From Candidatus Nomurabacteria bacterium (GTDB taxonomy: Bacteria > Patescibacteriota > Minisyncoccia > Phycocordibacterales > UBA9973), in the NCBI GenBank assembly GCA_026395915.1, contig JAPLXU010000012.1:8996-72995 (forward strand): a stretch of 64,000 nt of DNA, in the 5' to 3' direction. Shown piece after piece: positions 2,498-52,997 of this stretch (position 1 is its first letter; each line of letters opens with the position of its first letter). Position numbers and translations under genes: made by a program. The notes beneath the pieces are model-generated. The model did not search any database and was not told where the DNA came from. It was given only the letters and a program-made list of their open reading frames with translations.

Positions 2498-3865
2498 TCA
2501 GGCTGCCTTTGCGAGGTCGCTCCCGAGAACGAGATCACTCGTCTCGGAGAACTTCGGGAGTTCCCATTTGAGGGCAACTTCGACGATATTGTCGAGGCCG
2601 ACGAGGTTCGATTCGTCCGTCGGATTCATCGCGTGCCAGGCCCACGTCTTGGGATGTTCAGGTGTATTGTTATCCGCCACGATCTTGGCGAGATCAACAT
2701 TGGACTGGGCGGCGATCTCGATTCCAGTCATGTAGCCGATCGAGCCAAGCAGAAGGCTTGTGACCACATCCCAATGTTGCTGTTGGCTGGAGAAGTGGCT
2801 GGGATTGCGGAACTGGCTCAGTTCGAACTCAATTGTGAATGTTGTCTCACAGGGGTTGAGTTTCAAATCGTTGCGGGCGCCGATTTGCGCGCCGAGCCAA
2901 TCGACTTGGTGCCCATTTGCCATCGCGAGAGAGTTATGCGCTTGAACACCGGGAGGCGGTTGGTCGCCATTCATGCGACTCCAGGGTTCTCCACCGATAC
3001 GTTGGCCGAGGTATCCACAACCGGCAATGCGGCCGAGCGTAGTATTCAAGCCTTTGCCATGGAACCGGCGAATAAACCACCCATACCCAGCCTTCCTCAG
3101 CACCTTGAACGACCACTCTGGGCGAAAGCCCTGTAGGACATCGTGAGATGCGTCGTGATTGAGGAAGCACCAGCCCTTCAGACCCGCGGCTTCGACCATG
3201 CGAGCGATAACGATCCAGTGTTGAGGGGTATTTGCAATGTTCTGAGTGAACGTATCTGCCGGTGTCCAACCGCACATTGGGCAATTCTCAATAAAGAGTT
3301 TTACCCCGTACTCTTTTGCGTAGCGGATGAGCGGAATGAGAACTTCGCCGACGAGTCGCATGTTCTCCTCAATCGGGAGTTTCAGATTGCGGCCGACGAA
3401 GATCGAAACACCTTCAGTTTTCGCCCCAGCTTTGTTCAACTTGGCGGCCGCGCGGATCGCACGACGGACATGCTCGATGTTCTGACGCCGGAACATTGGA
3501 TTCTCATGGAGCAGATTCTCGAACACACCAACGGTGCCGAGCGCAACTTTTCCTCCACAAGCATCGGCGAGTTCACGGGCATCTTCATCATCCAAGTCAA
3601 CGCCGGTGCAGTCTTTGCGCGTCAACATAGCGATGTGGTGTGCAACCGGATCCGCCATCGATTCCGGAGGCACATTGGCGTGAGAGGGCGCATGAGCACC
3701 ACCCATTTCCAAGGACTCAACGCCATTAGCCACGGCCCAGGCAATCCATTTCAAGGCGGCAGTGTTTGCCGCCTTGCGGGGATCGTGAATGAACATCTTT
3801 GAGTCTGTGCCCGGAGGCGTTTGTACGGCGGCCGTAAGGACGCCGATTTTCATTATGTTTCTCAT
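2498..3865 (-). CDS. sugar phosphate isomerase/epimerase (xylose-isomerase-like TIM barrel) encoded in a GC-rich segment
   Basis: Long minus-strand ORF. The likely start is ATG at 3865 (MRNIMKIGVL...), not the upstream in-frame Met. The TIM-barrel isomerase-like pattern includes 'KLFIENCP'. GC is ~58%, far above the genome. Confidence 0.5.
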   Translation of the reverse strand: MRNIMKIGVLTAAVQTPPGTDSKMFIHDPRKAANTAALKWIAWAVANGVESLEMGGAHAPSHANVPPESMADPVAHHIAMLTRKDCTGVDLDDEDARELADACGGKVALGTVGVFENLLHENPMFRRQNIEHVRRAIRAAAKLNKAGAKTEGVSIFVGRNLKLPIEENMRLVGEVLIPLIRYAKEYGVKLFIENCPMCGWTPADTFTQNIANTPQHWIVIARMVEAAGLKGWCFLNHDASHDVLQGFRPEWSFKVLRKAGYGWFIRRFHGKGLNTTLGRIAGCGYLGQRIGGEPWSRMNGDQPPPGVQAHNSLAMANGHQVDWLGAQIGARNDLKLNPCETTFTIEFELSQFRNPSHFSSQQQHWDVVTSLLLGSIGYMTGIEIAAQSNVDLAKIVADNNTPEHPKTWAWHAMNPTDESNLVGLDNIVEVALKWELPKFSETSDLVLGSDLAKAA

Positions 3866-4097
3866 AGTCTTGGTTTGTATTTTTCCGTTGTATACCGAAA
3901 GATGCACACACATGCACCCTGTACCGCCAAAACACACTACGTGCGTTCGGCAGTAACCTTGTAAATACTATAAATATCCACAAGGCTACTGCCGAAATAT
4001 ACAGAAAAAACAAGCAAAAGAGCTCTGTTTTCAAGGTTCTAATTCATCTAATCTTCATGAGTATTACCACGAAATTGCTTTTTTCGCAAGGGCTTTA

Positions 4098-10007: not shown

Positions 10008-12905
10008 ATGATATCCCGGATATATGTGATGCCTAAGAAGATTGAGAATAAGGCAGATTCGTATCTTATCGACTCGAAATTATCCAAAAAAGAGCTTCAA
10101 AAACTCGCTGAGGCTCTCGCGAATCCCATTTTAGAAAATTATTATATCGATAGCTTTCCGACAAAAGAACTTTCTTTGAAATTTTCTTATGCGATTGAGA
10201 TAGGATTTTTACCAGGTGTCACAGACAATGTCGGCCAAACAGTCAAAGAAATTGCGACCGATCTTTTTCACTTGAAAAAAAGTTCTGATTTTCACGTTTA
10301 CACTTCTAAAATTCTGTTTGTTGAGTCAAACAAACTTGCTGATGCTCAAAAAATAGCTATGACTCTACATAATCCGCTTATCGAGAGAGCTTTTATCGCG
10401 AAAGTAGAAAATAAAAGTATGAGTTTGCCTATGAAAGCTCCAAAAGTGGTTCTCGAAAAAAAGAAGCCGGTCATAAATGTATTGTTTGAAGTCGAAGACG
10501 AAGAACTCATAAAAATCGGCAGGGAAGGAATAATGGACGAAAACGGCGGACGCAGAGGGCCACTCGCGCTTGATCTAGACTCGATGAAAGTTATCAAAAC
10601 GCATTTTGAAAAATTAAAAAGAAATCCGACGGATATCGAATTGGAATCTCTAGCGCAAACTTGGTCTGAACATTGCAAACACACGATTTTTGCTAATCCG
10701 ATAGACGATATTAAAGATGGTTTGTATAAAACTTATATAAAGGGAGCGACAAATTTGATACGTGAGAAAAAAGGAAAAAAAGATTTTTGTGTCTCTGTTT
10801 TCAGCGATAATTCTGGCGGAATAGTTTTTGATGACGATTATCTAATCACTCACAAAGTCGAGACGCACAATAGTCCTTCGGCCCTTGATCCCTTCGGCGG
10901 AGCGATCACAGGAATCGTCGGAGTCAATCGCGACACGATCGGTTTCGGTTTGGGCGCCAAGCCTGTGGCAAATGTTTACGGATTTTGTTTTGGTTTTCCC
11001 GATGATGAAAGAAAATTTTTTAGAGATAAAAATTTAACACAGCCTATGCTTTCGTCGAGAAGAATTATTGACGGGGTGATAAAAGGCATCAACGTCGGAG
11101 GCAATTGTTCCGGTATACCGACCCTCTCCGGTTTTGTAAAATTTGATGATCGTTATCGGGGAAAGCCTTTGGTATTTGCCGGAACTGTTGGTTTGATCCC
11201 AAGAAAATTAAATGGGAGAGAAATGCACGAAAAAAGAGCTCGAGCGGGGGATTACATTGTCGTCGTAGGCGGTAGAGTCGGCAAAGATGGCATTCATGGA
11301 GCAACTTTTTCTTCTGTTGTTATGGATTCGAATTCTCCGGCGACCGCAGTGCAAATAGGCGACCCGATCACTCAGAAAAAATTAAGCGATGCCATAGTCA
11401 AAGAGGCGCGCGATTTAGATTTGTATAACAGCATCACGGACAACGGCGCAGGTGGACTTTCTTGTTCCGTGGCGGAAATGGCAAAAGAATGCGGTGGCGC
11501 GAAAGTTTTTTTGGATAAAGCTCCACTCAAATATCCCGGCCTTCAGCCATGGGAAATTTGGATTTCAGAATCCCAAGAGCGGATGACCTTATCAGTTCCG
11601 AAAGGAAAATGGGGAAAGTTTCAAAAATTGATGGAAAGCCGAGGCGTAGAAGCGACTGTGATTGGAGAATTCACAAATTCAGGAAAATGTATTGTCGAGT
11701 GGAAAGGCAAAGTTATAATGAATATTGACCTTGAATTTTTGCATAATGGTTTGCCGAAACACAATTTAATTACTAGTTCTGTCATGCAGACCCCTCCCAA
11801 CCCTCCCCTTATCAAGGGGAGGGCGAAGGGTGAGATGTACACAAAAATTTTTGAAAATTTACTTGCAGACAAAAATATCAGCGGATTTTCTTTCATCTCT
11901 GAGCAATATGATCATGAAGTACAAGGGTCTTCAGTATTAAAACCACTCTCTGGTCCTGGCAAGATAAACACCGACGCGCAAGTCTTTTGTCCTGTTCTTA
12001 ATTCTAAAAAAGGAGTCGTTCTTTCATCTGGAATTTGTCCTTCGTATGGAGACGTCAGTACGTACCACATGGCAACTTGCGCGCTCGATACTGCCGTACG
12101 AAATGCTATTGCTTGCGGTGGGACTCTTTCTCATTTAGCAATTTTGGATAATTTTTGTTGGTGTTCATCTAATGATCAAAAGCGTTTGGCTCAACTTGTA
12201 GAATCTGTGAAAGCTTGTTACGACGGAGCCGTAAGTTATGGTACTCCGTTTATTTCGGGCAAGGATAGCATGTTCAACGACTTCAAGGGTTATGACGAGA
12301 AAGGTAATCCTGTTGCTATTTCTATTCCGCCAACTTTACTTATTTCCGCTATTAGCGTTATGCCTGATATCTATAAAACTGTTTCACCTGAATTTAAAAA
12401 TAGCGGAGACGCGATTTATCTGTTGGGAGAAACGCACGACGAGCTCGGTGTTCCAAAAGTTGATTTTGAAAAAAATTTAAAAACATATTTAGCTCTTGAG
12501 AAGGCGATTCAGAAAGAATTAGTAGCTTCTTCGATTTCTATAACTTCAGGAGGATTTGCTGTAGCGCTTGCTAAAGCATGTGTTGGGGGAATGTTAGGCT
12601 GTAAAGTTTCCTTAAACCAGATAGCGCTTAAAGCGCTATCTGTGGAAACTAAACTTTTTTCTGAAAGTCAGGGCAGAATCTTAGTATCGGTGTCCCTGAA
12701 AAAGACTAAACAATTCGAAAAACTTTGCGCAAGTGTTGCTTTTACGAAACTGGGAAAAACTAATAAAAGTCCTGCCCGCAATGCTTTGCATAACAATGCA
12801 GGCGGGGGTAGAATCACAATAATGGATGGCAAAGATAAAATAGTCGAAACGAACGTCAAAAAACTTCATAAAATTTATCACAATTTTTCGGACGAAATGA
12901 AATAA
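10008..12905 (+). CDS. purL: phosphoribosylformylglycinamidine synthase, PurS-PurL fusion (FGAM synthase II with N-terminal tandem PurS-like domains)
   Basis: N-terminal PurS-like signatures ('LANPILENYYI' and 'LHNPLIERAFI'), then the PurL core with 'HNSPSALDPFGGAITGIVGVNRD'. 965 aa. Carries two in-frame GC-rich inserts (11788-11836 and 12771-12808). Confidence 0.85.
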   Translation: MISRIYVMPKKIENKADSYLIDSKLSKKELQKLAEALANPILENYYIDSFPTKELSLKFSYAIEIGFLPGVTDNVGQTVKEIATDLFHLKKSSDFHVYTSKILFVESNKLADAQKIAMTLHNPLIERAFIAKVENKSMSLPMKAPKVVLEKKKPVINVLFEVEDEELIKIGREGIMDENGGRRGPLALDLDSMKVIKTHFEKLKRNPTDIELESLAQTWSEHCKHTIFANPIDDIKDGLYKTYIKGATNLIREKKGKKDFCVSVFSDNSGGIVFDDDYLITHKVETHNSPSALDPFGGAITGIVGVNRDTIGFGLGAKPVANVYGFCFGFPDDERKFFRDKNLTQPMLSSRRIIDGVIKGINVGGNCSGIPTLSGFVKFDDRYRGKPLVFAGTVGLIPRKLNGREMHEKRARAGDYIVVVGGRVGKDGIHGATFSSVVMDSNSPATAVQIGDPITQKKLSDAIVKEARDLDLYNSITDNGAGGLSCSVAEMAKECGGAKVFLDKAPLKYPGLQPWEIWISESQERMTLSVPKGKWGKFQKLMESRGVEATVIGEFTNSGKCIVEWKGKVIMNIDLEFLHNGLPKHNLITSSVMQTPPNPPLIKGRAKGEMYTKIFENLLADKNISGFSFISEQYDHEVQGSSVLKPLSGPGKINTDAQVFCPVLNSKKGVVLSSGICPSYGDVSTYHMATCALDTAVRNAIACGGTLSHLAILDNFCWCSSNDQKRLAQLVESVKACYDGAVSYGTPFISGKDSMFNDFKGYDEKGNPVAISIPPTLLISAISVMPDIYKTVSPEFKNSGDAIYLLGETHDELGVPKVDFEKNLKTYLALEKAIQKELVASSISITSGGFAVALAKACVGGMLGCKVSLNQIALKALSVETKLFSESQGRILVSVSLKKTKQFEKLCASVAFTKLGKTNKSPARNALHNNAGGGRITIMDGKDKIVETNVKKLHKIYHNFSDEMK

Positions 12906-12960
12906 TAAATAAAACAATACTCAAACTTAGCGATAGCAGAATTTGAGTATAGATAATAAA

Positions 12961-14625
12961 ATGGATCAAGAAATAAAAAATTGTAAACAATGTAAAAAAG
13001 ATTTCGTCATTGAGCCGGACGATTTTGGATTCTATGAAAAAATGAAGGTGCCTCCTCCTGTTTTTTGTCCTGAATGCCGACAACAACAGAGAATACTTCA
13101 TCGAAATTTCAAAACTTTATACAAAAGACCTTCGAGCAAGTCCGGTGAAATGATTATTTCAATGTACAATCCCGACGTTCCTTTTCCTGTCTATGACATT
13201 TCCGAGTGGTGGGGAGACGATTGGGAAGCCTCGTCATACGCGATGGATTTGGATTTATCCATTCCTTTCGTAAAACAAATGGATGAGCTTTTCAAAAAAG
13301 TTCCCCATTTCTCCTTGATGAACACCAAAAGCACGAATTGCGAATATTCAAACATGACTTTGCGTTCAAATAATTGCTATCTGATCTTTGGATGCATTGA
13401 CGATGAAAACTGCGATTACGGCCATATCGTCTGGAGTTCTACCGATTGCACCGACAACTTATATGTTTATAAATGCGAGCTTTGTTACGAATGCATGGAT
13501 TGCATTGGATCTAATAGATTGATTTATTCTGAGGAATGCGAAGCATGTGTCGACTCTATCGGTCTTTTTGATTGTCGTGGTTGTACTAATTGCATAGGTT
13601 GTGTCGGTTTGCGACAGCAGTCTCACAAAATTTTCAATCAACCTGTCACAAAAGAAGAATATCAAGAATTTCTACGCAACTATCCGCTCAATAAAAAAGA
13701 AAGCATAGAATATATTTTGGAAAAAAGGGAGGAACTCAGAAAAAAAATTCCGACTCGCGCGGTTTACGGTTCGCATAATACAAATGTTTCCGGAGATCAT
13801 ATATACAATGCTCACAATGTTCATTATTCTTTTGATATAAAAGGCGGAGAGAATAGTAAATTTTGTTTCACGGCAAAAGAAAATAACGAAGTTTATGATG
13901 GGTCTTTTACTATTGAAAATGAATTCAGTTATCAAATTTTAACTTGCGCCAATAGTCATAACGTGTTTTTTTCACATCTTTTAACTGATTGTAATGAGGG
14001 ATACTATTCCCAATTCTGCTTTAATTCAAAAAATATTTTCGGCTGTATGGGCTTGAGAAATAAGCAATATTGCATTTTGAATAAACAGTACACAAAAGAA
14101 GAATATGAAAAACTTATGCCACAAATCATTGAAAATATGAAAAAAACCGGAGACTGGGGCAATTTCTTTCCGATTTGGATGAGTCCATTCGCGTACAACG
14201 AATCAATCACAAATGAATATATGCCATTAACAAAAAAACAGGCGTTGGATCAAGGTTTTTCTTGGCGAGACGATATTCCAAGTACGACAGGAAAAGAAAA
14301 CTGCGCTTATGAAGACTTACCAAAAGATCCGAAAGAATACAGTGATGAAAAACTTTTGGATAAAATTTTGAAATGCGAGTCTTGCGGGAAAAATTACCGC
14401 TTCATATCTAGGGAAATTGGTTTCTATAAGAGAATGGGCTTGGCGCTTCCGTCGAAATGTTCCAATTGTCGCCATCAGAGACGAATGGATACTCGTAATA
14501 AAAGGGAATTGAATGATTCAACTTGCGCGTCGTGTGGTATTGAAATCGAGACTACTTTTTCAAAAGAAAAGCAAGAAGTATATAAAATTTACTGCGAGAA
14601 ATGTTATCAAAGAGAAATATACTAA
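12961..14625 (+). CDS. cysteine-rich protein, paralogue 1 of a 4-member family (duplicated N/C-terminal zinc-ribbon-like modules plus internal CxxCxxCxxC repeats)
   Basis: The ATG at 12961 is preferred over the TTG at 12943 because it aligns with the paralogue N-termini (..C-x2-C-KKDF-I-E-DDF-FYEK-VP-P-FCP-CR..). Ends ..YCEKCYQREIY. Confidence 0.7.
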   Translation: MDQEIKNCKQCKKDFVIEPDDFGFYEKMKVPPPVFCPECRQQQRILHRNFKTLYKRPSSKSGEMIISMYNPDVPFPVYDISEWWGDDWEASSYAMDLDLSIPFVKQMDELFKKVPHFSLMNTKSTNCEYSNMTLRSNNCYLIFGCIDDENCDYGHIVWSSTDCTDNLYVYKCELCYECMDCIGSNRLIYSEECEACVDSIGLFDCRGCTNCIGCVGLRQQSHKIFNQPVTKEEYQEFLRNYPLNKKESIEYILEKREELRKKIPTRAVYGSHNTNVSGDHIYNAHNVHYSFDIKGGENSKFCFTAKENNEVYDGSFTIENEFSYQILTCANSHNVFFSHLLTDCNEGYYSQFCFNSKNIFGCMGLRNKQYCILNKQYTKEEYEKLMPQIIENMKKTGDWGNFFPIWMSPFAYNESITNEYMPLTKKQALDQGFSWRDDIPSTTGKENCAYEDLPKDPKEYSDEKLLDKILKCESCGKNYRFISREIGFYKRMGLALPSKCSNCRHQRRMDTRNKRELNDSTCASCGIEIETTFSKEKQEVYKIYCEKCYQREIY

Positions 14626-14664
14626 AACATATTTCAGCTATAGCGTAAATGTGTAAATCGGAAA

Positions 14665-16410
14665 ATGAAAGAAGAAAATGAAAACAGAATATGCCAGAAC
14701 TGTAAAAAAGACTTTATCATTGAGTCGGATGATTTTCGATTTTATGAAAAGATTAAAATGCCTGCGCCGACTTTTTGTCCCAATTGTAGATTTCAAAGAC
14801 GGCTGCTTTTTAGAAATAACAGAGTTTTTTACAGACGAGAATGTGCTTTGTGTAGAAAGTCGCTATTAAGTGTTTATAATACAGAAAGGCCGTACATAAT
14901 TTATTGTCGTGATTGTTGGTTTTCAGATAAATGGGATCCAATGAGTTACGGACGTGAATATGATTTTTCTGTTCCATTTTTAAACCAATTTCGATCCTTA
15001 CAGTCAAAAGTTCCGAAGGCTAATCTTAATCAAACCAATTTTATTTCAAGTGATTATTGTAACTATGGTTACGATTTTAGAGAATGTTATTTATTGTTTG
15101 GAGGAAAAAATAATGAAAGAGTCTATTTTGGTAACCAAATTTTAGATTCTCGTGATTCGTTGGATATGTCTTTTTCTGAAAAAATAGAATTGAGCTATGA
15201 AAATTTAGAATGCCAAAGAGTAAATAAACTATTATTCGGCTTTTATTCCACAGACTGTGTTGAAAGCTCTTATTTAATTGATTGTAAAAATTGCATGAAC
15301 TGTTTCGGTTGCGTTGGGCTAGTAAATAAACAATATTGTATTTTTAATGAACAATACACGAAAGAAGAATATAAAAAATTTATAAATTCGAATGATGCTG
15401 GCAGTTTTAAAAATCATCAGAAATTTCTTGGAAAATTGCAAGAGCTAAAGTTAACTATGCCACATCGTTATGCTCGTATTTATAAATCAGTCAATTCTGA
15501 TGGAGACGATCTGTCGGAAGTCAGAAACACACATAATTCTTTTAGTTCCCATAAAGTAGAAAATTCAAAATATTTATTTTTTTGCAGAAATGGAACGAAA
15601 GATTGTTATGATACTTCGTTTCAAGGTTATAATGCTGAACTTCTTTATGAAATTGCCCACGGTTTTGGTGGATCAAATGGAGCTTTTGGTGTCAGAAACT
15701 TTAATAATCAAAATACATGTTACGTTGATGAATGCCAAAATTGCCTAAATGTTTTTGGCTGTGAAGGTCTCACAAAAAAACAATACTGCATTTTAAACAA
15801 ACAATACACGAAAGAGGAATATGAAGAACTTGTCCCGAAAATTATAAAACACATGAGCGATATGCCTTATATTGATCAAAAAGGCAGAGTTTATAAATAT
15901 GGAGAATTTTTCCCGAACGATCTGTCTCCATTTGCTTATAACGAAAGTATAGTGCAAGAATATTTTCCATTAACTAAAGAAGAAGCTTTGAAACATGGGT
16001 ATATGTGGAAAGATAGTGCGACAAGAAATTATAAAATAGATATTGAAAATGAGGATATACCAGATAATATTAAAGATGTTGAAGATGGTATAATAAACAA
16101 AGTGATTGCTTGTGAACATCATGGTAAATGTAAAGATCAGTGTACCGAAGCATTCAAAATCATTCCAGAAGAATTTAAATTTTACAAGAGAATGAATCTG
16201 CCCTTGCCGAGATTATGCCCAAATTGTCGACATTATCAGCGTTTAAAGTTTAGAAACCCTCTCAATCTCTGGCATAGAAAATGTATGTGTGACAGAAATA
16301 ACCATTTTCACGGACAGGATAAATGCGAAGTGGAATTTGAAACAAGTTATGCGCCGGATCGCCCAGAGATAGTTTACTGTGAAAAATGTTATCAGCAAGA
16401 AATTTATTAA
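14665..16410 (+). CDS. cysteine-rich protein, paralogue 2 (tandem with paralogue 1)
   Basis: 581 aa. Same architecture and the same C-terminus (..YCEKCYQQEIY). Contains the 'QYCILNKQYTKEEY' repeats. Confidence 0.7.
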   Translation: MKEENENRICQNCKKDFIIESDDFRFYEKIKMPAPTFCPNCRFQRRLLFRNNRVFYRRECALCRKSLLSVYNTERPYIIYCRDCWFSDKWDPMSYGREYDFSVPFLNQFRSLQSKVPKANLNQTNFISSDYCNYGYDFRECYLLFGGKNNERVYFGNQILDSRDSLDMSFSEKIELSYENLECQRVNKLLFGFYSTDCVESSYLIDCKNCMNCFGCVGLVNKQYCIFNEQYTKEEYKKFINSNDAGSFKNHQKFLGKLQELKLTMPHRYARIYKSVNSDGDDLSEVRNTHNSFSSHKVENSKYLFFCRNGTKDCYDTSFQGYNAELLYEIAHGFGGSNGAFGVRNFNNQNTCYVDECQNCLNVFGCEGLTKKQYCILNKQYTKEEYEELVPKIIKHMSDMPYIDQKGRVYKYGEFFPNDLSPFAYNESIVQEYFPLTKEEALKHGYMWKDSATRNYKIDIENEDIPDNIKDVEDGIINKVIACEHHGKCKDQCTEAFKIIPEEFKFYKRMNLPLPRLCPNCRHYQRLKFRNPLNLWHRKCMCDRNNHFHGQDKCEVEFETSYAPDRPEIVYCEKCYQQEIY

Positions 16411-27046: not shown

Positions 27047-27131
27047 CTCCTCCTGAAACAATTTTTGAAAATACGCCCTCGAGGTCAACAGGACAGGGAA
27101 CCCACTTTTCTTAAAATTGTTTCAGGAGGAG
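27047..27131 (+). ncRNA. conserved structured intergenic element, copy 1 (19-bp perfect closing stem around a conserved 47-nt core)
   Basis: ctcctcctgaaacaatttt ... aaaattgtttcaggaggag encloses GAAAATACGCCCTCGAGGTC-N16-CACTTTTCTT. The 3' arm contains the purH Shine-Dalgarno AGGAGG. Copies 2 and 3 are listed below. Confidence 0.5.
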
Positions 27132-29111: not shown

Positions 29112-29675
29112 ATGGAAATGGCAAAGGATCTGAAAGTTGGCATAATAATGGGTTCGGATTCTGATTTGGAAGTAATGTCGGAAGCGGCAAAAGTGCTTGA
29201 AGAATTTGGTGTCTCCTATGAAATTACCGTTGTTTCAGCGCATCGAAGCCCAAATCTTGCGCACAAATACGCAACCAGCGCAAAAGATAAAGGAATCAAA
29301 ATTATCATCGCTGGAGCAGGCGGAGCAGCGCATCTCGCTGGAGTAGTGGCATCGCTCACGAGCTTGCCCGTCATCGGTGTGCCTATTAAAACAAAAAATC
29401 TAGACGGACTGGATTCACTTCTTTCAACAGTCGGAATGCCTCCCGGAGTGCCCGTCGCAACTGTCGGAATAAATTCTGCAAAAAATGCTGGGTTGCTAGC
29501 TATCCAGATGCTTGCGCTTTCAGATAAAAATCTCGATGACAAATTGGTGGCATATAAAAATAAACTTGAAAAAGACACAAAAATAAAAAGCGAAAAACTT
29601 CTGAAAGTCGGATATAAAAAATATTTACCTGCCCGCAATGCTTCAGGCATAGCTGATGCAGGCGGGAAGAAATAA
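29112..29675 (+). CDS. purE: N5-CAIR mutase / AIR carboxylase catalytic subunit, with a C-terminal extension carrying a GC-rich repeat
   Basis: 'GIIMGSDSD' is the PurE pattern, together with 'IIAGAGGAAHLAG'. The C-terminal 13 codons (29628-29666) are a copy of the 'PARNA..AGG' GC-rich element. Confidence 0.85.
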   Translation: MEMAKDLKVGIIMGSDSDLEVMSEAAKVLEEFGVSYEITVVSAHRSPNLAHKYATSAKDKGIKIIIAGAGGAAHLAGVVASLTSLPVIGVPIKTKNLDGLDSLLSTVGMPPGVPVATVGINSAKNAGLLAIQMLALSDKNLDDKLVAYKNKLEKDTKIKSEKLLKVGYKKYLPARNASGIADAGGKK

Positions 29676-33446: not shown

Positions 33447-35204
33447 ATGACTTTTAGAAATTTTTTAAAATTCGCCAATCGACATAAAAATAATGGGCAT
33501 GATTTTGTTGAACCGGACGAAATTTTTCTCGATTCAAAAAACTTACAAAACTTTGACCGCCAGCAATTTGAGGGCAGAATAGAAAAACCTATTTCAAAGA
33601 GAACTATTGTTTTTCTTGGTGCCTTCTTTTTTCTTATGATAATTATTTTTGGAACTCGGCTAATAGATCTCCAGGTGAAAAATGGAGACAGCTATAGGCA
33701 AAGAAGTGAAAACAATATTTTGCAAAAAGTGAATATTTTCGCCGAAAGGGGAGCCATCTATGATCGAAACAAAAAAGAACTGGTTTGGAATGAAAAAAGC
33801 GACAATGAGACAGGGGATCTATCTGAATTGTCATATACTCGCGCCTACCTATCTCCAGGATTTTCTCATGTGCTTGGTTATGTGAGTTATCCAACGAAGG
33901 ATCATGCTGGGAACTATTGGCAAGATGAATTCATTGGAAAGGACGGTCTCGAAAAAAAATATAATGACAAGATAAATGGCGAAAACGGTTCAAAGATAAT
34001 TGAAACTGACGCCAGAGGAAATATTCATTCTGAAAATATTGTTAATATGCCGAATCGTGGAAGCGATCTAGTAACGAGCATTGACTCTCGAATTCAGACT
34101 GAATTGTTTACTCTTATTAGAAACCTATCCGAAAGTAATAATTTTACAGGCGGTGCAGGAGTTATGATGAACGCGCAGAATGGAGAGATATTAGCTTCTA
34201 CTAGCTTTCCCGAGTATGACTCTGGGGTCCTTTCTTTAGGCAAAGATTCAAAAAAAATTAGCACATATGTGACTGACAAAAGAAAATTTTTTTTAGATAG
34301 AACTATTTCAGGGCTTTATACCCCTGGCTCTATCGTTAAACCTTTTTTTGCTCTAGGCGCTTTGACAGAAGGTGTAATTGATCAAAATAAAAAAATTCTT
34401 TCGACAGGTTCTATTTCCATTCCGAATCCATATTTTCCTGATCAAAAAACAGTTTTCAAGGACTGGCGAGTAAACGGCTGGACGAATATGGCTGAAGCGT
34501 TGGCTGTCTCTTCGGACGTCTATTTTTATGAAATTGGAGGAGGTTTTGAAGACCAAAAAGGACTTGGTATCACAAATATTGAAAAATACGCGAATCTTTT
34601 TGGCTTTGGTGATAGGACAGGAGTTGATCTTCCGGACGAAACAAAAGGCACGATTCCTAGTCCAGGATGGAAGGCGTTGAACTTCAAAGGAGATGCTTGG
34701 CGCATCGGAGACACTTATCATACAGCGATAGGCCAGTATGGATTTCAAGTTACTCCGATGGAAATGGCGCGAGCCGTCTCTGCTATCGCTAACTATGGCA
34801 AACTTCTGACTCCACATTTCCTACTGAATGACACCGAAATGCCTGCCCGCAATGCTTCGCATAGCGATGCAGGCGGGGAAAATCAAGTTACTCAAATAAA
34901 CATACCAAAAGAGTACTTTGATGTAGTTCACGAAGGAATGAGGCAAGCAGTAACAGACGGAACAGCAACTTCACTTAACGTGCCTTATGTAAAAGTTGCA
35001 GTTAAAACTGGTACAGCTCAAATCGGAGTAGCAAATAATAAAGTAAACTCCTGGGTTATCGGTTTCTTTCCGTATGAAAATCCAAAATACGCGTTTGCGG
35101 TAATGATGGAAGCCGGTCCGACAACAAATAGCGCAAACGCATCTACCATAATGCGTGAACTTTTAGACTGGATGTCCACCAACACTCCAGAGTATTTTCA
35201 ATAG
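33447..35204 (+). CDS. mrdA: class B penicillin-binding protein (PBP2-like peptidoglycan transpeptidase)
   Basis: 'SIVKPF' (SxxK), 'KTGTAQ' (KTG) and an N-terminal TM. Contains an in-frame GC-rich 'PARNASHSDAGGE' insert (34842-34877). Confidence 0.8.
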   Translation: MTFRNFLKFANRHKNNGHDFVEPDEIFLDSKNLQNFDRQQFEGRIEKPISKRTIVFLGAFFFLMIIIFGTRLIDLQVKNGDSYRQRSENNILQKVNIFAERGAIYDRNKKELVWNEKSDNETGDLSELSYTRAYLSPGFSHVLGYVSYPTKDHAGNYWQDEFIGKDGLEKKYNDKINGENGSKIIETDARGNIHSENIVNMPNRGSDLVTSIDSRIQTELFTLIRNLSESNNFTGGAGVMMNAQNGEILASTSFPEYDSGVLSLGKDSKKISTYVTDKRKFFLDRTISGLYTPGSIVKPFFALGALTEGVIDQNKKILSTGSISIPNPYFPDQKTVFKDWRVNGWTNMAEALAVSSDVYFYEIGGGFEDQKGLGITNIEKYANLFGFGDRTGVDLPDETKGTIPSPGWKALNFKGDAWRIGDTYHTAIGQYGFQVTPMEMARAVSAIANYGKLLTPHFLLNDTEMPARNASHSDAGGENQVTQINIPKEYFDVVHEGMRQAVTDGTATSLNVPYVKVAVKTGTAQIGVANNKVNSWVIGFFPYENPKYAFAVMMEAGPTTNSANASTIMRELLDWMSTNTPEYFQ

Positions 35205-36686: not shown

Positions 36687-36761
36687 CAGCAAACAATTTT
36701 CGAAAATACGCCCTCGAGGTCATAAGGATAAGGAACTCACTTTTCTTAAAATTGTTTACTG
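36687..36761 (+). ncRNA. conserved structured intergenic element, copy 2
   Basis: cagcaaacaatttt ... aaaattgtttactg stem (14 bp, 1 mismatch) around the core CGAAAATACGCCCTCGAGGTCATAAGGATAAGGAACTCACTTTTCTT. Lies 18 nt upstream of the rplI ATG. Confidence 0.5.
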
Positions 36762-42690: not shown

Positions 42691-42850
42691 TCGCTAAAAT
42701 ACAATTCAAATACAACCCCTTATAAAATACCTTCAAGAACAATTCAGATGCAACCCCCTATTTCCCCCTTATCAGGGGGACTAAAATACCGAATACTGTG
42801 CTTTCGTATTTTCCCTCCCCTGATAAGGGGAGGATTAAGGAGGGGTTGAA
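42691..42850. repeat. composite GC-rich palindromic repeat, left copy (plus a partial upstream duplication) flanking the DUF559 gene
   Basis: ctaaaat-caattc..CAACCCC-(ccccc ttatca ggggg hairpin)-spacer-(cctcccc tgataa ggggagg hairpin)-GGGGTTG. The 7-bp terminal inverted repeat is CAACCCC/GGGGTTG. Confidence 0.7.
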
Positions 42851-43227
42851 TTCATGCATTTAATTTTTCCAATCAAATCCTCAGCAACACTCTCCGTGTC
42901 TGCCAGAATTTCTTCATTCGTGTATCTTATTATTTTTAATCCAAATTTCTGTTTTAATAAGTTATCTCTTTCTTCATCTCTTGTCTTTTGAAAAGTATGT
43001 ATTTTTCCATCAATTTCTATTGCAAGACCAAGTTTTGAGCAGTAAAAATCTACAACAAAGTGATCTATCGGTTTTTGTCTGGTAAATTTTAAGTTCGCTA
43101 GTTTTTTATTTTTTAAAATTTTACCCCAAAAAACCTTTTCAGCTTCAGTCGTTTTTTTTCGTAACTCTCTAGCGCGAGAAACTAAATTTTTATCATATGG
43201 AATATATGGGATATTGTATTTTTGCAT
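42835..43227 (-). CDS. DUF559 endonuclease-domain protein (Vsr-like fold family)
   Basis: 130 aa with the 'ARELRKKTTEAEKVFW' N-terminal motif typical of DUF559. The C-terminus (..KCMNSTPP) reads into the left repeat. Confidence 0.6.
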   Translation of the reverse strand: MQKYNIPYIPYDKNLVSRARELRKKTTEAEKVFWGKILKNKKLANLKFTRQKPIDHFVVDFYCSKLGLAIEIDGKIHTFQKTRDEERDNLLKQKFGLKIIRYTNEEILADTESVAEDLIGKIKCMNSTPP

Positions 43228-43242
43228 GAAGTTAATTATAAC

Positions 43243-43406
43243 CTAAAATGCAATTCGGTAGATAACTCAAACGCAACCCCCTTTTATCCCCCTTATCAGG
43301 GGGGGCTAAATACCGTTTCGTGCCTTTCGCAAGAACCGTTCTTGCAAAAACTTGCGAAAACGATCGCATTTTATTCCTCCCTGATAAGGGAGGTTAGGAG
43401 GGTTGA
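43243..43406. repeat. composite GC-rich palindromic repeat, right copy (direct orientation relative to the left copy)
   Basis: Same architecture as 42691-42850, with an extra internal palindrome gcaagaac-c-gttcttgc. Confidence 0.7.
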
Positions 43407-43454: not shown

Positions 43455-44457
43455 TCAGCGGACGCAACGGAAGTAGCAACTAGTGATCTTATTGAAGCCA
43501 CCACTTGCGTTGCCACTGCTGAAACCTACGTACATAGCGCTCGTGGAACTAGCAGGTCGAGAAGTAGATGACCAGTAGTTGCTACTCGATGCAAAAGTGG
43601 GAAAATAGGTTACATTGGTAAATGGCACACTCGCGACTCCAAAGTCAACCAGACTGTAAAGCTCATATATATTCGGCAGGCGCCAACCGCTTCCGGGAAG
43701 CGCATCAGTATTAGCGTTGCAGTAGGTAAGCGCGTTTGCCCAAGTTACTGTCACGGCTGAACCAATCTCACAGTTAGTACCACTCAAACCAGCGGAGCAT
43801 TTTTGCCAGACAAGACCGGTAGAATTGTCTGTAATAGTGCCATCATTGTTGTCAGTGTAAGAGCGAGCTGTACCTTTTAATAACTCTCCATCTTGACCGG
43901 TGCCGGAGCAAGTTACGACAAAGCCTCCCGTGTCATAACAAATTGTTTGATTAGTTTTTAATAATCCGGCAGATCTGGCGTTTCCCGTCACTCCAAAAAT
44001 AGAAACATTATTTTTGATATCCCGTCACTCCAAAAATAGAAACATTATTTTTGATATTCCCAGCCTGAAGATTTGTATCTCCGGCAGTAGCAGTTTTAGA
44101 TCCAGAATAGATCCCATTTGGAATAGTAAAGGTAAGTAAGCCATTGCCTCCTGTGACATTAGAGCCAGCGCTTGGGATAGAGTTGTATATATCATCTAAT
44201 GTGTGCATTGTGGAACCGGGAGCTCCTGAAGGAGAATTGAATGAAGTGTTCTTTGTGGCAGAGGTGCCATTTGCTAGTTTTTGATAGATTTGTTCTAACG
44301 TATACATTCTGCCTGAAGTTGATGGAGAGCCTGGGGAATCTATGTTGCCTGCGTGGACGAAGACGTAGACTAGAGTGACAGAGAGGACTATGCTACAGAT
44401 TCCTGTTGTGAGCTTGTAGAGAAAGGAATTTGATTTTGGGTTGGGTTTATTAGTCAT
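43455..44457 (-). pseudogene. DUF1566-domain surface protein split by a 37-bp tandem duplication
   Basis: Two adjacent ORFs (44008-44457 and 43455-43991). Removing one copy of the 37-nt unit (43984-44020 = 44021-44057) joins them in frame (..SIFGVTG|NARSAGLLK..). 'GWRLPNIYEL' is DUF1566-like. Confidence 0.6.
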
Positions 44458-48780: not shown

Positions 48781-50553
48781 TCAATATACTTCCTGTTGAT
48801 AACATTTTTCACAGTAAACAATCTCAGGCCTGTCTGGAGAATAAGAAGTATCAAATTCGACTTCACATCTTTCTGTTCCATGAAAATGTTGACCGGTCGC
48901 TTGTGGTGAGCCTGCCAAACCACACATGCACGTTCTTTTCCATAATTTTAACGCAGGCATAGCTTTATATCTTTCGTAATAACGGCAGTTTGGACACAAA
49001 ATCGGAAGCGGTATGTTATGTTTTTTGTAAAAAAGAAGTTCGTAATTAGTTAAACGAAAAGCGACGTTGCATTGTTGATCGCACTTCCCTTCGTGCGCAC
49101 AACCCAAAACTTCGTTCAAAATTCCGTCATTCACTTCGCCTATGTTGTCTGGAATTTTTTCTGCAGAAACTGTAACATTAAATTTCTTTGCTTCAGACTC
49201 ATGCCAAGGATAACTTTTTTCTTCCGCCGTCTCTTTTGAGAGAGGAAAAAATTCTTGCGCCAAAGTTTCATTGTATGCCCAAGGTGAAAGTTCAATCGGG
49301 AAAAATTCTCCATATTTATAGATTCTCCCCTTTTTATCTTTGAAAGGAATATCGTTCATCTGCCTTATTATTTCTTCGCGTAATTTAGCAAATTCTTTTT
49401 TCGAATAAACTTTATTAAAAATTGCGTTCTCAGCGTTCCTGAGTGAAATACAGCCGAGAATATTCGTACAATCCTTACAAGACTCAGTATAGTCCGCATT
49501 TCTCACCGATTCCAACGCAGAATAAGAAAACTTAACATTGTAATCATTCATAGCGCCAGTAGCATATTCATAAAGTAATTCTGATTTACCAACATGATCA
49601 AGATCCATGCAATCTTTGAAATCAAATGCTCGGTAACAATATTTCGCATTCTCTACATTATATATTTCAAAACAATTTTTGGCATTTTTAACATTTAGAA
49701 GATTATTGCCCGTCACATTGACGCATTTGTTAATGTTGGCAAATCTAAAAATTGCTTTCTCCTTAATTTTTTTAAATTCTTCAGCCAAGATCTGACGCGA
49801 AGCTCTGCTTTTTAGATTGAATTTTTCAAATTCTTTTAAATACTCTTCCCTAGAATATTGTTCGTTACGAATGCAAAACTTTTTATTGCGCAGATTGCTT
49901 GATAAAAAACAATTGCTGCAATTCACACAGTCAACAAGATAATATGAGTCTAAACAACCTCTGCAAAGCAAAAGATACTGGGAATTATAATTCCCCTGCC
50001 CTTCAACATTCTCATATAAACTTTCCGATCCATTTATAACATTAAGACAATCAACAATATCTCTTGATTTATCTATAGACTTTGAATAAAAAATATTTTC
50101 CGATTCCTTTACAACTGAAACAGATAAATAAACATTTCTTGATTCTCCAACCAAATTAGCATAATCGCAATTGATTGCATTCCTCTGCCACAAAGCCAAA
50201 CGCGGAACAGTTTTCGAAAATTCTCTATACTGCTCAAAAAATGGCTTGGAAAAATCGTAATCTCGCCCATAAGATTCTGCATCCCATTTATCTCCATACC
50301 AACATTCTCGACAATAAACCGGAAAAGGTGCAGATTCGTGATGTATAGAAATTATATTCTTTCCACAAAGATTGCAAATACGACGATACAAAGATCTTTC
50401 GTTACGCCAAGCAAAACGTCGTATCTGTCGACACTCTGGGCAAAAAGTCGGTGGTGGAACTTTTATTTTTTCATAAAACGAAAAATCATCTGACTCAATC
50501 GTAAAGTCTTTTTTGCAGTTTTGACAGATTTTGTTTTCGATTTTTTGTTCCAT
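48781..50553 (-). CDS. cysteine-rich protein, paralogue 3
   Basis: 590 aa. N-terminus 'ICQNCKKDFTIESDDFSFYEKIKVPPPTFCPECR'. C-terminus '..IVYCEKCYQQEVY'. Confidence 0.7.
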   Translation of the reverse strand: MEQKIENKICQNCKKDFTIESDDFSFYEKIKVPPPTFCPECRQIRRFAWRNERSLYRRICNLCGKNIISIHHESAPFPVYCRECWYGDKWDAESYGRDYDFSKPFFEQYREFSKTVPRLALWQRNAINCDYANLVGESRNVYLSVSVVKESENIFYSKSIDKSRDIVDCLNVINGSESLYENVEGQGNYNSQYLLLCRGCLDSYYLVDCVNCSNCFLSSNLRNKKFCIRNEQYSREEYLKEFEKFNLKSRASRQILAEEFKKIKEKAIFRFANINKCVNVTGNNLLNVKNAKNCFEIYNVENAKYCYRAFDFKDCMDLDHVGKSELLYEYATGAMNDYNVKFSYSALESVRNADYTESCKDCTNILGCISLRNAENAIFNKVYSKKEFAKLREEIIRQMNDIPFKDKKGRIYKYGEFFPIELSPWAYNETLAQEFFPLSKETAEEKSYPWHESEAKKFNVTVSAEKIPDNIGEVNDGILNEVLGCAHEGKCDQQCNVAFRLTNYELLFYKKHNIPLPILCPNCRYYERYKAMPALKLWKRTCMCGLAGSPQATGQHFHGTERCEVEFDTSYSPDRPEIVYCEKCYQQEVY

Positions 50554-50601
50554 AACTTTTTCACTTTAGTTTAGTAAAGTCTGAGCAAGGACTCCCCTTG
50601 C

Positions 50602-52302
50602 TCAATACACCTCTTGCTGATAACACTTCTCACAATAAACTATCTCAGGTCTATCAGAAGCATAACTGGTTTCGAATTCCACCTCGCAACGTCCTTCGTG
50701 ATGAATGTGTTTTTTGTCACACATGCATTGTCTATGCCAGAGTTTGTTTGGCCCGCGATTTTTTAGACGTGTTTCATGCCGACATTCAGGACAATTCCGC
50801 GGGATAGGTATTTTCATTCTTCTATAAAAGCTCAGCTCATCTGCAATAATTCTATAATTTTTATTGCATTCTTTACACACAAAAACTTCTTTGCTCACAT
50901 TAAAATCAGTAGGCAACTCTGAAATTGAATCAGGAAAATTTTTCCAAACTATAGTTTCTTTACCATAATTACCTCGCGGTGTATCTTCCCATTTGAAACC
51001 TTGAGCCAAAGCTTGTTCTTTTGTTAGTGGAAATTCATCCACAACAGAAGATTCGTTGTAACCATAAGGAGATAATTCTTTCGGAAAAAAGTTTCCGTAA
51101 ATCTCTTCTTGTTTCATTCGTTCAATAATTTCAGTACGTAATTTTATGTATTCCTCCTTACTGTATTGTTTATTCAAAATGCAATAAGATCCTTGAATTA
51201 AACCAGCACAACCAAAACAATTATTGGAATTCGGGCAGTTCAAACAATATTGCATAAAACTTGATTCCCAACAATAATAACTACATATTATATTTGAGCA
51301 TTGCATACCTATGTTCAAAGAATTATAGACAAGTTCCGCTGTTCTCCCTGATGTATTGCAATCCATGCAATTTTTTGCTACACGCCAAGCGTGTATACAA
51401 TATGCATTGTCTTCCGCGTCATAAGAATGGAAGCAATAACGATTATTTTTTACATTCGTCATGTAATTACCAGTAGAATTGACAACATTAAAAACTTCAG
51501 CGAATTTTCTTGGTTTATTTTTTATAAAATTTCTAAATTCTTTTTTAAAATTTTCTACTCCTGAATGTGTGTCTAGTTTAAATGATTTTAATTTTTCTTC
51601 GTATTCTTCTTTTGTGTAAGGTTCGTTGAAAATGTGATATTTTTGCTGACGTAAATTGATACATCCAAGACAATTGGTGCATCCTCGGCAATCAAACAAA
51701 AAGGCACTATTAAGACAACTGTAACAACCTTTACAAAAACGCAAGGAATGGCAATCATAACAATCATCAACTTCGTAAGAAAGTTCTACTTTATTTGTAA
51801 AAGAACAATCAACTAATTCTTTAGAGAGTTGTATCCAGTAACAATTTATGCAATTCTCATTATTTGAGCTCTCCATAATCATGTAGCAATTTTTTGTATC
51901 GGCAGTGTGATTAAGATATTCAGAATTGATACTATTCATATGGACCAGAGCTGGTTTTGGAACTTTCTGCCATAATTCATTAAATTGTTTAAAGAACGAT
52001 TTTTTAGGATCATATTCCATACCGTAATTTTTTCCTTTTAAATCATCGCTGCGCCAACACTCATGACACCATACAGGATAAGTTTTATTTGCACTAAACA
52101 TAGAAATAGTGCTTCTCTTGCAATTATCACAGTTGCGCTTATAAAGAAACCTTTCGTTTCTAAAAATTAGTCTTAGTTGCGAACGGCATTCCGGACAAAA
52201 AGTCGGCGGTGGAACTTTGATTTTTTCGTAGAACGAAAAATCATCTGGCTCTATGGTGAAGTCTTTTTTGCAGTTCTGACATTGTCTCGTTTCACTTTTC
52301 AT
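50602..52302 (-). CDS. cysteine-rich protein, paralogue 4 (tandem with paralogue 3)
   Basis: 566 aa. Same N- and C-terminal modules. The GC-rich hairpin tgagcaagg-actcc-ccttgctca overlaps its stop (50582-50604). Confidence 0.7.
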   Translation of the reverse strand: MKSETRQCQNCKKDFTIEPDDFSFYEKIKVPPPTFCPECRSQLRLIFRNERFLYKRNCDNCKRSTISMFSANKTYPVWCHECWRSDDLKGKNYGMEYDPKKSFFKQFNELWQKVPKPALVHMNSINSEYLNHTADTKNCYMIMESSNNENCINCYWIQLSKELVDCSFTNKVELSYEVDDCYDCHSLRFCKGCYSCLNSAFLFDCRGCTNCLGCINLRQQKYHIFNEPYTKEEYEEKLKSFKLDTHSGVENFKKEFRNFIKNKPRKFAEVFNVVNSTGNYMTNVKNNRYCFHSYDAEDNAYCIHAWRVAKNCMDCNTSGRTAELVYNSLNIGMQCSNIICSYYCWESSFMQYCLNCPNSNNCFGCAGLIQGSYCILNKQYSKEEYIKLRTEIIERMKQEEIYGNFFPKELSPYGYNESSVVDEFPLTKEQALAQGFKWEDTPRGNYGKETIVWKNFPDSISELPTDFNVSKEVFVCKECNKNYRIIADELSFYRRMKIPIPRNCPECRHETRLKNRGPNKLWHRQCMCDKKHIHHEGRCEVEFETSYASDRPEIVYCEKCYQQEVY

Positions 52303-52916: not shown

Positions 52917-52997
52917 GTTCTGTGAAGGATTTTAAGAAAAGTGGGTTCCCTGCCCTTAAGACCTCGAGGGCGTATTTTCAAAAATCCTTTACAGAAC
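52917..52997 (-). ncRNA. conserved structured intergenic element, copy 3 (minus strand, fills the scpA-scpB spacer)
   Basis: Minus strand: gttctgtaaaggatttt-GAAAATACGCCCTCGAGGTCTTAAGGGCAGGGAACCCACTTTTCTT-aaaatccttcacagaac. 15 nt upstream of the scpB ATG. Overlaps the scpA stop. Confidence 0.5.

Follow-up and report, generated by a model that had tools for sequence, protein, structure and literature searches.

Copies of a hairpin repeat in purL, purE and mrdA

The window analysed here is a stretch of 64,000 nucleotides from Candidatus Nomurabacteria bacterium (assembly GCA_026395915.1, contig JAPLXU010000012.1, positions 8,996 to 72,995 of the forward strand), in which three protein genes contain near-identical, GC-rich copies of a short hairpin repeat. 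All three genes are on the plus strand: purL (10008–12905; NCBIfam TIGR01736), encoding an FGAM synthase of 965 amino acids, purE (29112–29675; TIGR01162), encoding a protein of 187 amino acids, and mrdA (33447–35204; TIGR03423), encoding PBP2, of 585 amino acids. The PBP2 protein is 100% identical to one annotated from a metagenome-assembled genome (MAG) of Candidatus Nomurabacteria; an exact look-up of the PurE protein gave no recorded match.

Near the carboxy-terminus of purL, the first copy (12771–12806, plus strand) is the 36-nt sequence CCTGCCCGCAATGCTTTGCATAACAATGCAGGCGGG, read in frame as PARNALHNNAGG and bounded by the arms CCTGCCCGC (12771–12779) and GCAGGCGGG (12798–12806). The original prediction, made from the window alone, had started this copy at the same base but ended it at 12808, thereby including two G of the next glycine codon; the element is 36 nt long and stops at 12806. 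The second copy (29628–29666, plus strand; CCTGCCCGCAATGCTTCAGGCATAGCTGATGCAGGCGGG) belongs to a 39-nt subfamily and lies in the carboxy-terminal tail of purE, in frame and three codons before the stop, where it encodes PARNASGIADAGG. The third (34842–34877, plus strand; CCTGCCCGCAATGCTTCGCATAGCGATGCAGGCGGG) is again 36 nt long; it lies within the part of mrdA that encodes the transpeptidase domain and is read in frame as PARNASHSDAGG. The copies share the plan CCTGCCCGCAATGC-N-GCAGGCGGG, with lengths of 36, 39 and 36 nt, and a common reading frame, P-A-R-N-A-...-A-G-G. The prediction of near-identical GC-rich segments in one frame of the three genes is thus borne out, with all three on the plus strand, as is its statement that only the centre varies: variation among copies is confined to the central part, where the changes are compensatory. 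The 16-mer CCTGCCCGCAATGCTT occurs three times in the window without mismatches, compared with an expected 0.33 occurrences when up to three mismatches are allowed, and none of 100 shuffled sequences reached three.

The segments are inserted DNA

About 55 PurL orthologues read LGKVTKD followed directly by GKVII, and the window protein has 12 extra residues at this point. Most of 120 PBP2 relatives (71–78% identical) read TEK followed by ENQ, while the window protein has exactly 12 extra residues between the lysine and the glutamate; in DNA, the empty site is GAA AAA / GAA AAT. The PurE profile TIGR01162 stops at residue 162 of 187, so copy 2 lies in a non-conserved tail. These clean 12-residue insertions in the PurL and PBP2 alignments, the latter a check that had been suggested beforehand, agree with the proposal that an inserted DNA element, and not protein homology, accounts for the shared segments. 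A conserved peptide motif is excluded by the presence of the element in DNA that codes for no protein, where both orientations occur, in many phyla as well as on phage contigs.

Eight independent Logan assemblies, from separate sequencing runs, begin inside the purE copy, at window position 29639, and one Logan contig (L217) ends inside the PBP2 copy, at 34869. De Bruijn assemblies are expected to break at repeats with several copies, and the occurrence of such breaks within copies in independent read sets shows that these are real multi-copy repeats and not an assembly artefact. The strain is contained in the runs ERR15302178-224, SRR20698638/9 and SRR25046533. In all three genes, what has been inserted is a copy of a short repeat (36 or 39 nt), rich in GC and imperfectly palindromic.

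In other lineages, the same or nearby sites contain eroded remnants, reading PARTTVQSGG, PAHQSANG, PATPTGG and KPARAGG, which indicates that copies erode after insertion. The single PBP2 junction is occupied by four family members, depending on the lineage: the 36-nt element of the window, a 39-nt one (locus L110), a 30-nt one, CCCGCCCGA...TCGGGCGGG (L225), and a reverse-oriented variant (L227). Four members at one junction point either to a strong hot spot or to a resident copy giving way to a new one. Other small insertions are found in almost the same PBP2 loop, next to window position 34842: EVLPPxGGK/R in orthologues P0008, P0076, P0077, P0103 and P0114, and NLHSIKVRQ in P0100 and similar proteins. 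Small insertions in general have a hot spot in this loop. When compared with the solved structure 5LP4, the stretch around the PBP2 insert aligns poorly by sequence alignment. In PurL, a second site of the loop, about eight residues past window position 12806, has KPARAGG or KPARRGG, which resemble eroded remnants of the element, and a PSTTPRTG insert among orthologues P0150, P0159 and P0140.

Two offset hairpins

The element sequence has a GCNNN periodicity, and several pairing registers are possible. Each of the window copies folds better than its shuffled versions on both strands (z = −2.4 to −3.4). Covariation was tested against shuffles with 57 distinct 36-mers. Hairpin 1 has a 5′ CCTG overhang, followed by a CCCGC/GCGGG stem, TGC/GCA pairs, a U·U mismatch, a 4-bp apical stem and an AUA loop; its covariation is 0.127, compared with 0.062 in shuffled alignments, a value that none of 500 shuffles reached. 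Hairpin 2 pairs CCTGC with GCAGG, CGC with GCG and AUGC with GCAU, leaving a 3′ CGGG overhang (0.122 compared with 0.060; again 0 of 500). Pairs between positions 16 and 26 are AU in 22 sequences, UA in 22 and GC in 3; for 11–21 the counts are 33 AU and 10 UA, for 12–20 they are 44 UA and 7 CG, and for 3–30 they are 49 UA, 3 CG and 2 AU. That both the CCTGC/GCAGG and the CCCGC/GCGGG arms can pair had been predicted, and compensatory changes are present in each. The simple full-length hairpin of minimum free energy has no covariation (0.050 compared with 0.049) and was rejected.

Hairpin 2 of the plus strand is the mirror image of hairpin 1 on the complementary strand. Each strand would therefore appear to offer the same architecture, a 4-nt 5′ tag with a stem-loop, the tag being CCTG on one strand and CCCG on the other. 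This shape is supported but not proven, because the arms are partly fixed by the way in which the copies were found. Rfam, searched over the whole window at gathering thresholds, returned one tRNA only, and around the PBP2 copy permissive E-values gave chance-level matches only (E 3.6 and 7.3). A CRISPR repeat is ruled out by the solitary placement of the copies, which are not in arrays, and an intrinsic terminator by the lack of a T-run after the hairpin.

Distribution and behaviour in coding DNA

A scan of species-representative genomes with the pattern CCTGCCCGCAATGC-N6-20-GCAGGCGGG yielded at least 119 loci. The first 80 of these comprise 48 from the Candidate Phyla Radiation (CPR), 16 from the Planctomycetes–Verrucomicrobia–Chlamydiae group (PVC; here Verrucomicrobia, Lentisphaerae and Kiritimatiellia), 11 labelled Gammaproteobacteria, 3 Bdellovibrionales, 1 Woesearchaeota and 1 'uncultured bacterium'. 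Some of these third-party labels are doubtful, such as 'uncultured Gammaproteobacteria' with 35% GC and CPR-like cassettes. Hosts also include a 546-kb Verrucomicrobiae contig, Kiritimatiellia contigs of 178–236 kb and a 5-Mb Deltaproteobacteria chromosome, and copies on such very long contigs mean that mis-binning is no explanation of the spread. The range of the family covers CPR, PVC, Desulfobacterota-type MAGs, one archaeal MAG and viral contigs. In IMG/VR, 13 stretches from eight viral contigs carry the element, in intergenic positions and with up to five copies in 33 kb; the genes seen on these contigs are of the structural phage type, and none is evidently a mobilising gene. In 12 loci, most of them viral-contig stretches (L120–L132), a subfamily, CCTGCCCGCAATGCTTCGCAACGCGAGGCAGGCGGG, is present 20 times; it lies between structural-type genes, with a +/−/− arrangement common to three related contigs.

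Well inside open reading frames (ORFs) of at least 600 nt lie 48 of the 125 copies with exact arms, the three of the window included. All 48 have a length that is a multiple of three (36, 39 or 42 nt); among 65 other copies, the length is not a multiple of three in 20. The sense P-A-R-N-A frame is used by 38 of the 48, even though stop codons are absent from five of the six frames. The statement that the frame is always the same therefore holds for the three window copies, while across the family it is a strong bias and not a rule; the suggested check of strand and frame preference gave both orientations in non-coding DNA and a favoured P-A-R-N-A frame in coding DNA. Flanks of coding copies are typically AAA and GAA, encoding a linker-like Lys and Glu. 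Since every coding copy is a multiple of three long and stop-free, the sequences imply that ribosomes probably translate straight through it.

Some hairpins are nested in other copies or added in the apical loop, at L015 and L082 from Lentisphaerae and at L160, L137, L172, L178 and L193 from metagenomes, forming composites of 43–72 nt. Nesting indicates that the element inserts into itself.

A cassette with a GIY-YIG gene and a tRNA gene

ORF clustering over 119 of the at least 119 loci revealed a family of 78–92-residue proteins, present in nine loci, which matches only the GIY-YIG catalytic domain of Pfam (PF01541; E 1e-15 to 8e-18). The order of the cassette is a duplicated tRNA 5′ fragment of about 20 nt, interrupted in its D-arm region by the hairpin, then a spacer of a few bases, the GIY-YIG ORF and an intact tRNA gene, which may be for Gln, Lys, Ile or others. 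The cassette copies at L134 and L142, and the family member found most often, have exactly the sequence of the PBP2 copy of the window. The cassette nuclease of L057/L133 has 79 residues.

For the reciprocal test, 80 metagenome loci were picked by GIY-YIG peptide patterns alone, 77 of them with enough upstream sequence. The hairpin is located 5–58 nt upstream of the GIY-YIG start in 69 of the 77, some of which also have a downstream copy, and a tRNA gene follows the GIY-YIG stop after 3–35 nt in 60 of the 77. The hairpin family is tightly linked to the GIY-YIG/tRNA cassette. Where the flanks match exactly, as they do at 29 loci, the hairpin follows nucleotide 4–19 of the tRNA fragment with no base duplicated or lost, and the two orientations occur in a ratio of 13:12. 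At tRNA fragments, insertion is precise, in either orientation and without target-site duplication. Three loci (L139, L193 and L209) have tandem hairpin-interrupted tRNA 5′ fragments ahead of the complete gene, an arrangement that would result from repeated hits on the same tRNA gene.

GIY-YIG itself, with six members, is the Pfam family seen most often in the 123 ORFs that adjoin non-coding copies. No transposase family is present among 25 listed of the 94 families matched by these ORFs, nor among the clustered neighbours. The same set of ORFs includes three small '23S rRNA intervening sequence protein' genes (PF05635) and four type IV secretion pilin-like ORFs; genes of these two kinds lie near hairpins at L026, L032, L070, L084 and L097, among others.

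Other features of the window

A second, unrelated hairpin family (…CCCTCCCCTTATCAAGGGGAGGG… / CCCCCTTATCAGGGGG) is present at 11790–11835, 42754–42791, 42812–42851 and 43278–43315. It is in frame in purL at about 11790–11835, where it encodes PPNPPLIKGRAKG, and its other copies are intergenic and in both orientations; presumably this is what had earlier been counted as the first in-frame repeat family of the window. An intergenic repeat of 67–79 nt (AAACAATTTTTGAAAATACGCCCTCGAGGTCA...CTTAAAATTGTTT), with terminal inverted AAACAATTTT/AAAATTGTTT, is found at 27056–27122, 36691–36757 and, inverted, 52918–52996, its copies being 82–91% identical. At 43983–44056, at the boundary of the minus-strand ORFs 43455–43991 and 44008–44457, there is an exact 37-nt tandem duplication (TCCCGTCACTCCAAAAATAGAAACATTATTTTTGATA twice), which may reflect a gene split by duplication or an assembly artefact.

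Two pairs of adjacent genes, at 12943–16410 and 48781–52302, are paralogous, inverted with respect to each other and 71–82% identical over stretches of 100–170 nt; this gene family is also present in the Nomurabacteria loci L005, L009, L075, L093 and L101. The first 4000 positions of the window have a G+C content of 48–52%, compared with 33–41% elsewhere, and are possibly foreign DNA. They contain a minus-strand ORF (2498–3937), whose corresponding gene in the near-identical contig L215 has the Pfam domain AP_endonuc_2.

A probable selfish hairpin with a proposed cognate nuclease

The closest known system is that of the Ssn nucleases and their NTS/SRM hairpin repeats. Ssn are single-domain GIY-YIG proteins (SsnA has 94 residues) that bind the NTS/SRM hairpin repeat only as single-stranded DNA (ssDNA), which they cut immediately 5′ of the repeat; hairpin repeats flank their genes, the identity of the loop is dispensable, 81% of the genomes rich in SRM encode the gene, and Ssn are enriched in symbionts, Rickettsia and Wolbachia included (Chenal et al., Nat Commun 2025, PMC11893778). 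We consider it probable, at roughly 70%, that the element in purL, purE and mrdA is a selfish repeat and the cognate hairpin of a stand-alone GIY-YIG nuclease of about 80 residues, with its coding copies filtered for low harm.

In this reading, each strand can adopt a fold, supported by covariation, in which a single-stranded 5′ tag of 4 nt precedes a G+C stem of 5 bp and a small internal loop, followed by a short apical stem that is free in sequence as long as it is paired. By analogy with Ssn, the nuclease would recognise this hairpin on ssDNA of either strand, and nuclease-dependent breakage, followed by repair or copying, may spread it to new sites. As the counts suggest, genes would keep only low-harm copies, those that are stop-free, a multiple of three long and placed in loops, linkers or tails; the favoured frame would encode a small, polar and flexible peptide, P-A-R-N-A-x4-5-A-G-G. 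Survival of only such copies would leave purL, purE and mrdA intact.

Several points weigh against this interpretation. That the GIY-YIG nuclease binds or cleaves the hairpin is something we infer by analogy only, and a nuclease on its own does not explain how a hairpin of 36 nt is copied to new sites. No GIY-YIG gene lies within the 64-kb window or in the PVC and viral loci examined, and extension of the window contig through other assemblies gave near-identical short contigs only, with no GIY-YIG gene. The published SRM motif, HGTCWY...RNCYNB, is matched by none of the three window copies and by neither of two consensus sequences; in the 80 GIY-YIG loci it has 2 matches, compared with 0.55 expected, and a canonical NTS, used as positive control, does match. 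A profile of more than 80 CPR GIY-YIG proteins scores equally well with Bacillus subtilis YazA/UPF0213 (56.8 bits) and with the NTS-flanked, 94-residue SsnA of Neisseria gonorrhoeae (51.6 bits), and the best match of these proteins in the Protein Data Bank is UPF0213 (1ZG2, E 7e-6). The arms of the sequences used for covariation were fixed, or nearly so, by the way the sequences were collected, and scores of this kind can be raised by relatedness among copies. A side result of these comparisons is that PLSDB contains two complete gonococcal chromosomes filed as plasmids; in one of them (L228), the 94-residue ssnA homologue is unannotated, with 9 NTS and 16 dRS3 repeats within 3.2 kb.

An independent parasite, mobilised by some other and possibly host function, might accumulate or be retained in dead tRNA 5′ fragments beside GIY-YIG genes, with the nuclease uninvolved. 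Solo copies greatly outnumber cassette copies, the gene being found in only 9 of 119 loci (of at least 119 matches), the PVC and viral loci that have hairpins show no GIY-YIG gene, and hairpins nested within hairpins are self-targeting that needs no nearby gene. However, at a density of about one copy per 20 kb, chance cannot account for a hairpin within a fragment of some 20 nt at 69 of 77 loci, GIY-YIG is the only recurrent non-housekeeping nuclease or recombinase neighbour among the 25 families listed of 94, and Ssn shows the same linkage of gene and repeat together with direct binding and cleavage (PMC11893778); we regard an uninvolved nuclease as unlikely. Also improbable, and slightly more so, is a signal that benefits the host, either by limiting or patterning the integration of transforming ssDNA, as the NTS/SsnA pair modulates natural transformation in Neisseria (PMC11893778), or as an mRNA or transcription hairpin under selection at each site. 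Such a role would fit arms that are perfectly conserved at orthologous sites while flanks have diverged to about 70% identity, and the four family members on exactly one PBP2 junction. Against it, most PurL and PBP2 orthologues are without any insert, the decayed remnants show erosion after insertion, the sites are in essential enzymes and random intergenic DNA with no consistent regulatory context, and the T-run that a terminator would need is missing.

Mobilisation by a RAYT or an IS200/IS605 Y1 (HUH) transposase acting on ssDNA hairpins, as for elements of the repetitive extragenic palindrome (REP) or REPIN type, would account for the size class of about 36 nt, the 5′ tetranucleotide with an imperfect palindrome (CCTG and CCCG are unpaired in the covarying hairpins), the lack of target-site duplication and the adjacent inverted or tandem copies at some loci. 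We judge it very unlikely: neither a Y1 nor any other transposase is found among the 25 listed of 94 families of the 123 neighbouring ORFs or among the clustered neighbours, the tag is CCTG/CCCG instead of GTAG/CGTC, many copies are intragenic, and the linked gene encodes a GIY-YIG protein. An assembly chimera, contamination or mis-binning might be thought to lie behind the shared segment and its cross-phylum spread, given that some third-party MAG labels look unreliable. It is scarcely credible in view of reading frames that are kept open, compensatory variation, the same sites in assemblies from at least eight separate sequencing runs, and the very long PVC and Deltaproteobacteria contigs.

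A further and much more tentative proposal may be made. Hairpin, GIY-YIG gene of about 80 codons and duplicated tRNA 5′ fragment might be the parts of one mobile element, of a class so far undescribed, with a nuclease and without transposase, integrase or reverse transcriptase. Its Ssn-like nuclease would read the dual-register hairpin on both strands, and the cassette would home into the D-arm region of many tRNA genes, regenerating an intact tRNA. It would also seed 'translation-proof' hairpins, with lengths in multiples of three, precisely and with no target duplication, in genes of CPR, PVC, Desulfobacterota, DPANN and phages, repeatedly hitting or replacing the same junctions.

Essential enzymes of ultra-small CPR bacteria carry many copies of a hairpin, probably selfish and translated, with effects on gene calling, protein alignments and the breakage of metagenome contigs. 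The link between a hairpin repeat and a single-domain GIY-YIG protein, established for Ssn, would be extended to uncultured phyla and phages; what is new is a different hairpin, nearly identical across phyla, with an unreported tRNA-linked cassette. The GIY-YIG protein may be a candidate enzyme for an old problem, the spread of in-frame palindromic elements as in Rickettsia. Should the nuclease–hairpin pairs behave like Ssn, they could provide new sequence-specific ssDNA-cutting reagents.

Comparison with known systems

A full-text literature search with the exact element sequence, on either strand, gave no match, and literature searches found nothing specific on in-frame palindromic elements in CPR or on a GIY-YIG/tRNA link. 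Among described repeats, the Rickettsia palindromic elements (RPE) were reportedly presented by Ogata et al. in 2000 with their mobilising enzyme unknown at the time; they are discussed in PMC1779305 and PMC10969869. Like RPE, the element is a selfish palindromic repeat in frame in conserved protein genes of a host-dependent bacterium with a reduced genome, RPE being tolerated at surface positions. RPE are about 100–150 bp long and confined to Rickettsia, while the present element has 36–39 nt, is found in several phyla and phages and is GIY-YIG-linked; the two are set apart here by length, host range and gene linkage.

REP and REPIN elements (PMC3733652, PMC3184786) are likewise G+C-rich imperfect palindromes of 20–40 nt, with a conserved 5′ tetranucleotide, a presumed ssDNA hairpin, no target-site duplication and occasional doublets. 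They are extragenic, linked to HUH/Y1 RAYT genes and tagged GTAG/CGTC, unlike the present element, which has many intragenic copies, the tag CCTG/CCCG and no such gene recurring nearby. A miniature inverted-repeat transposable element with target-site duplication was also considered, as the arms are inverted repeats, and rejected, since there is no duplication at the 29 tRNA loci or between the empty and filled PBP2 sites. Free-standing GIY-YIG homing endonucleases, such as SegB of phage T4, also have a GIY-YIG domain beside tRNA genes, but the Seg enzymes possess DNA-binding domains and are not accompanied by a dispersed hairpin repeat. In yeast mitochondria, GC clusters and the translational-bypass 'byp' elements are short, G+C-rich mobile hairpins that invade coding regions of an A+T-rich genome. 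Both are organellar, and the ribosome passes over byps, whose length does not have to be divisible by three, whereas every coding copy here is a multiple of three and stop-free. Slx1, YhbQ and YazA are structure-selective GIY-YIG relatives that cut branched or hairpin DNA (PMC7017083); YazA and YhbQ differ in their housekeeping context, without flanking repeats.

The resemblance to Ssn extends to several features. The GIY-YIG ORFs have 78–92 codons and no extra domain, similar to the single-domain Ssn proteins of about 80–94 residues. As with the Ssn repeat of about 30 nt, the gene is flanked by a hairpin repeat that is dispersed elsewhere, cassette copies being the same as solo copies, for instance that of PBP2. 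Both repeats consist of a hairpin with short non-palindromic tags, in which the loop or apical sequence is unimportant, and in both cases symbiotic or host-dependent hosts are enriched. The tag differs (CCTG/CCCG here, CGTC in Ssn), and both strands of the present element offer the same architecture, while cutting of NTS is confined to one strand. The cassette of tRNA 5′ fragment, hairpin, gene and intact tRNA is a further difference, the word 'tRNA' occurring zero times in PMC11893778, as are the many in-frame copies in essential genes and the hosts, which are CPR, PVC, other uncultured lineages and phages. The element is best filed with the systems of hairpin repeats and single-domain GIY-YIG nucleases, with an in-frame behaviour that is RPE-like.

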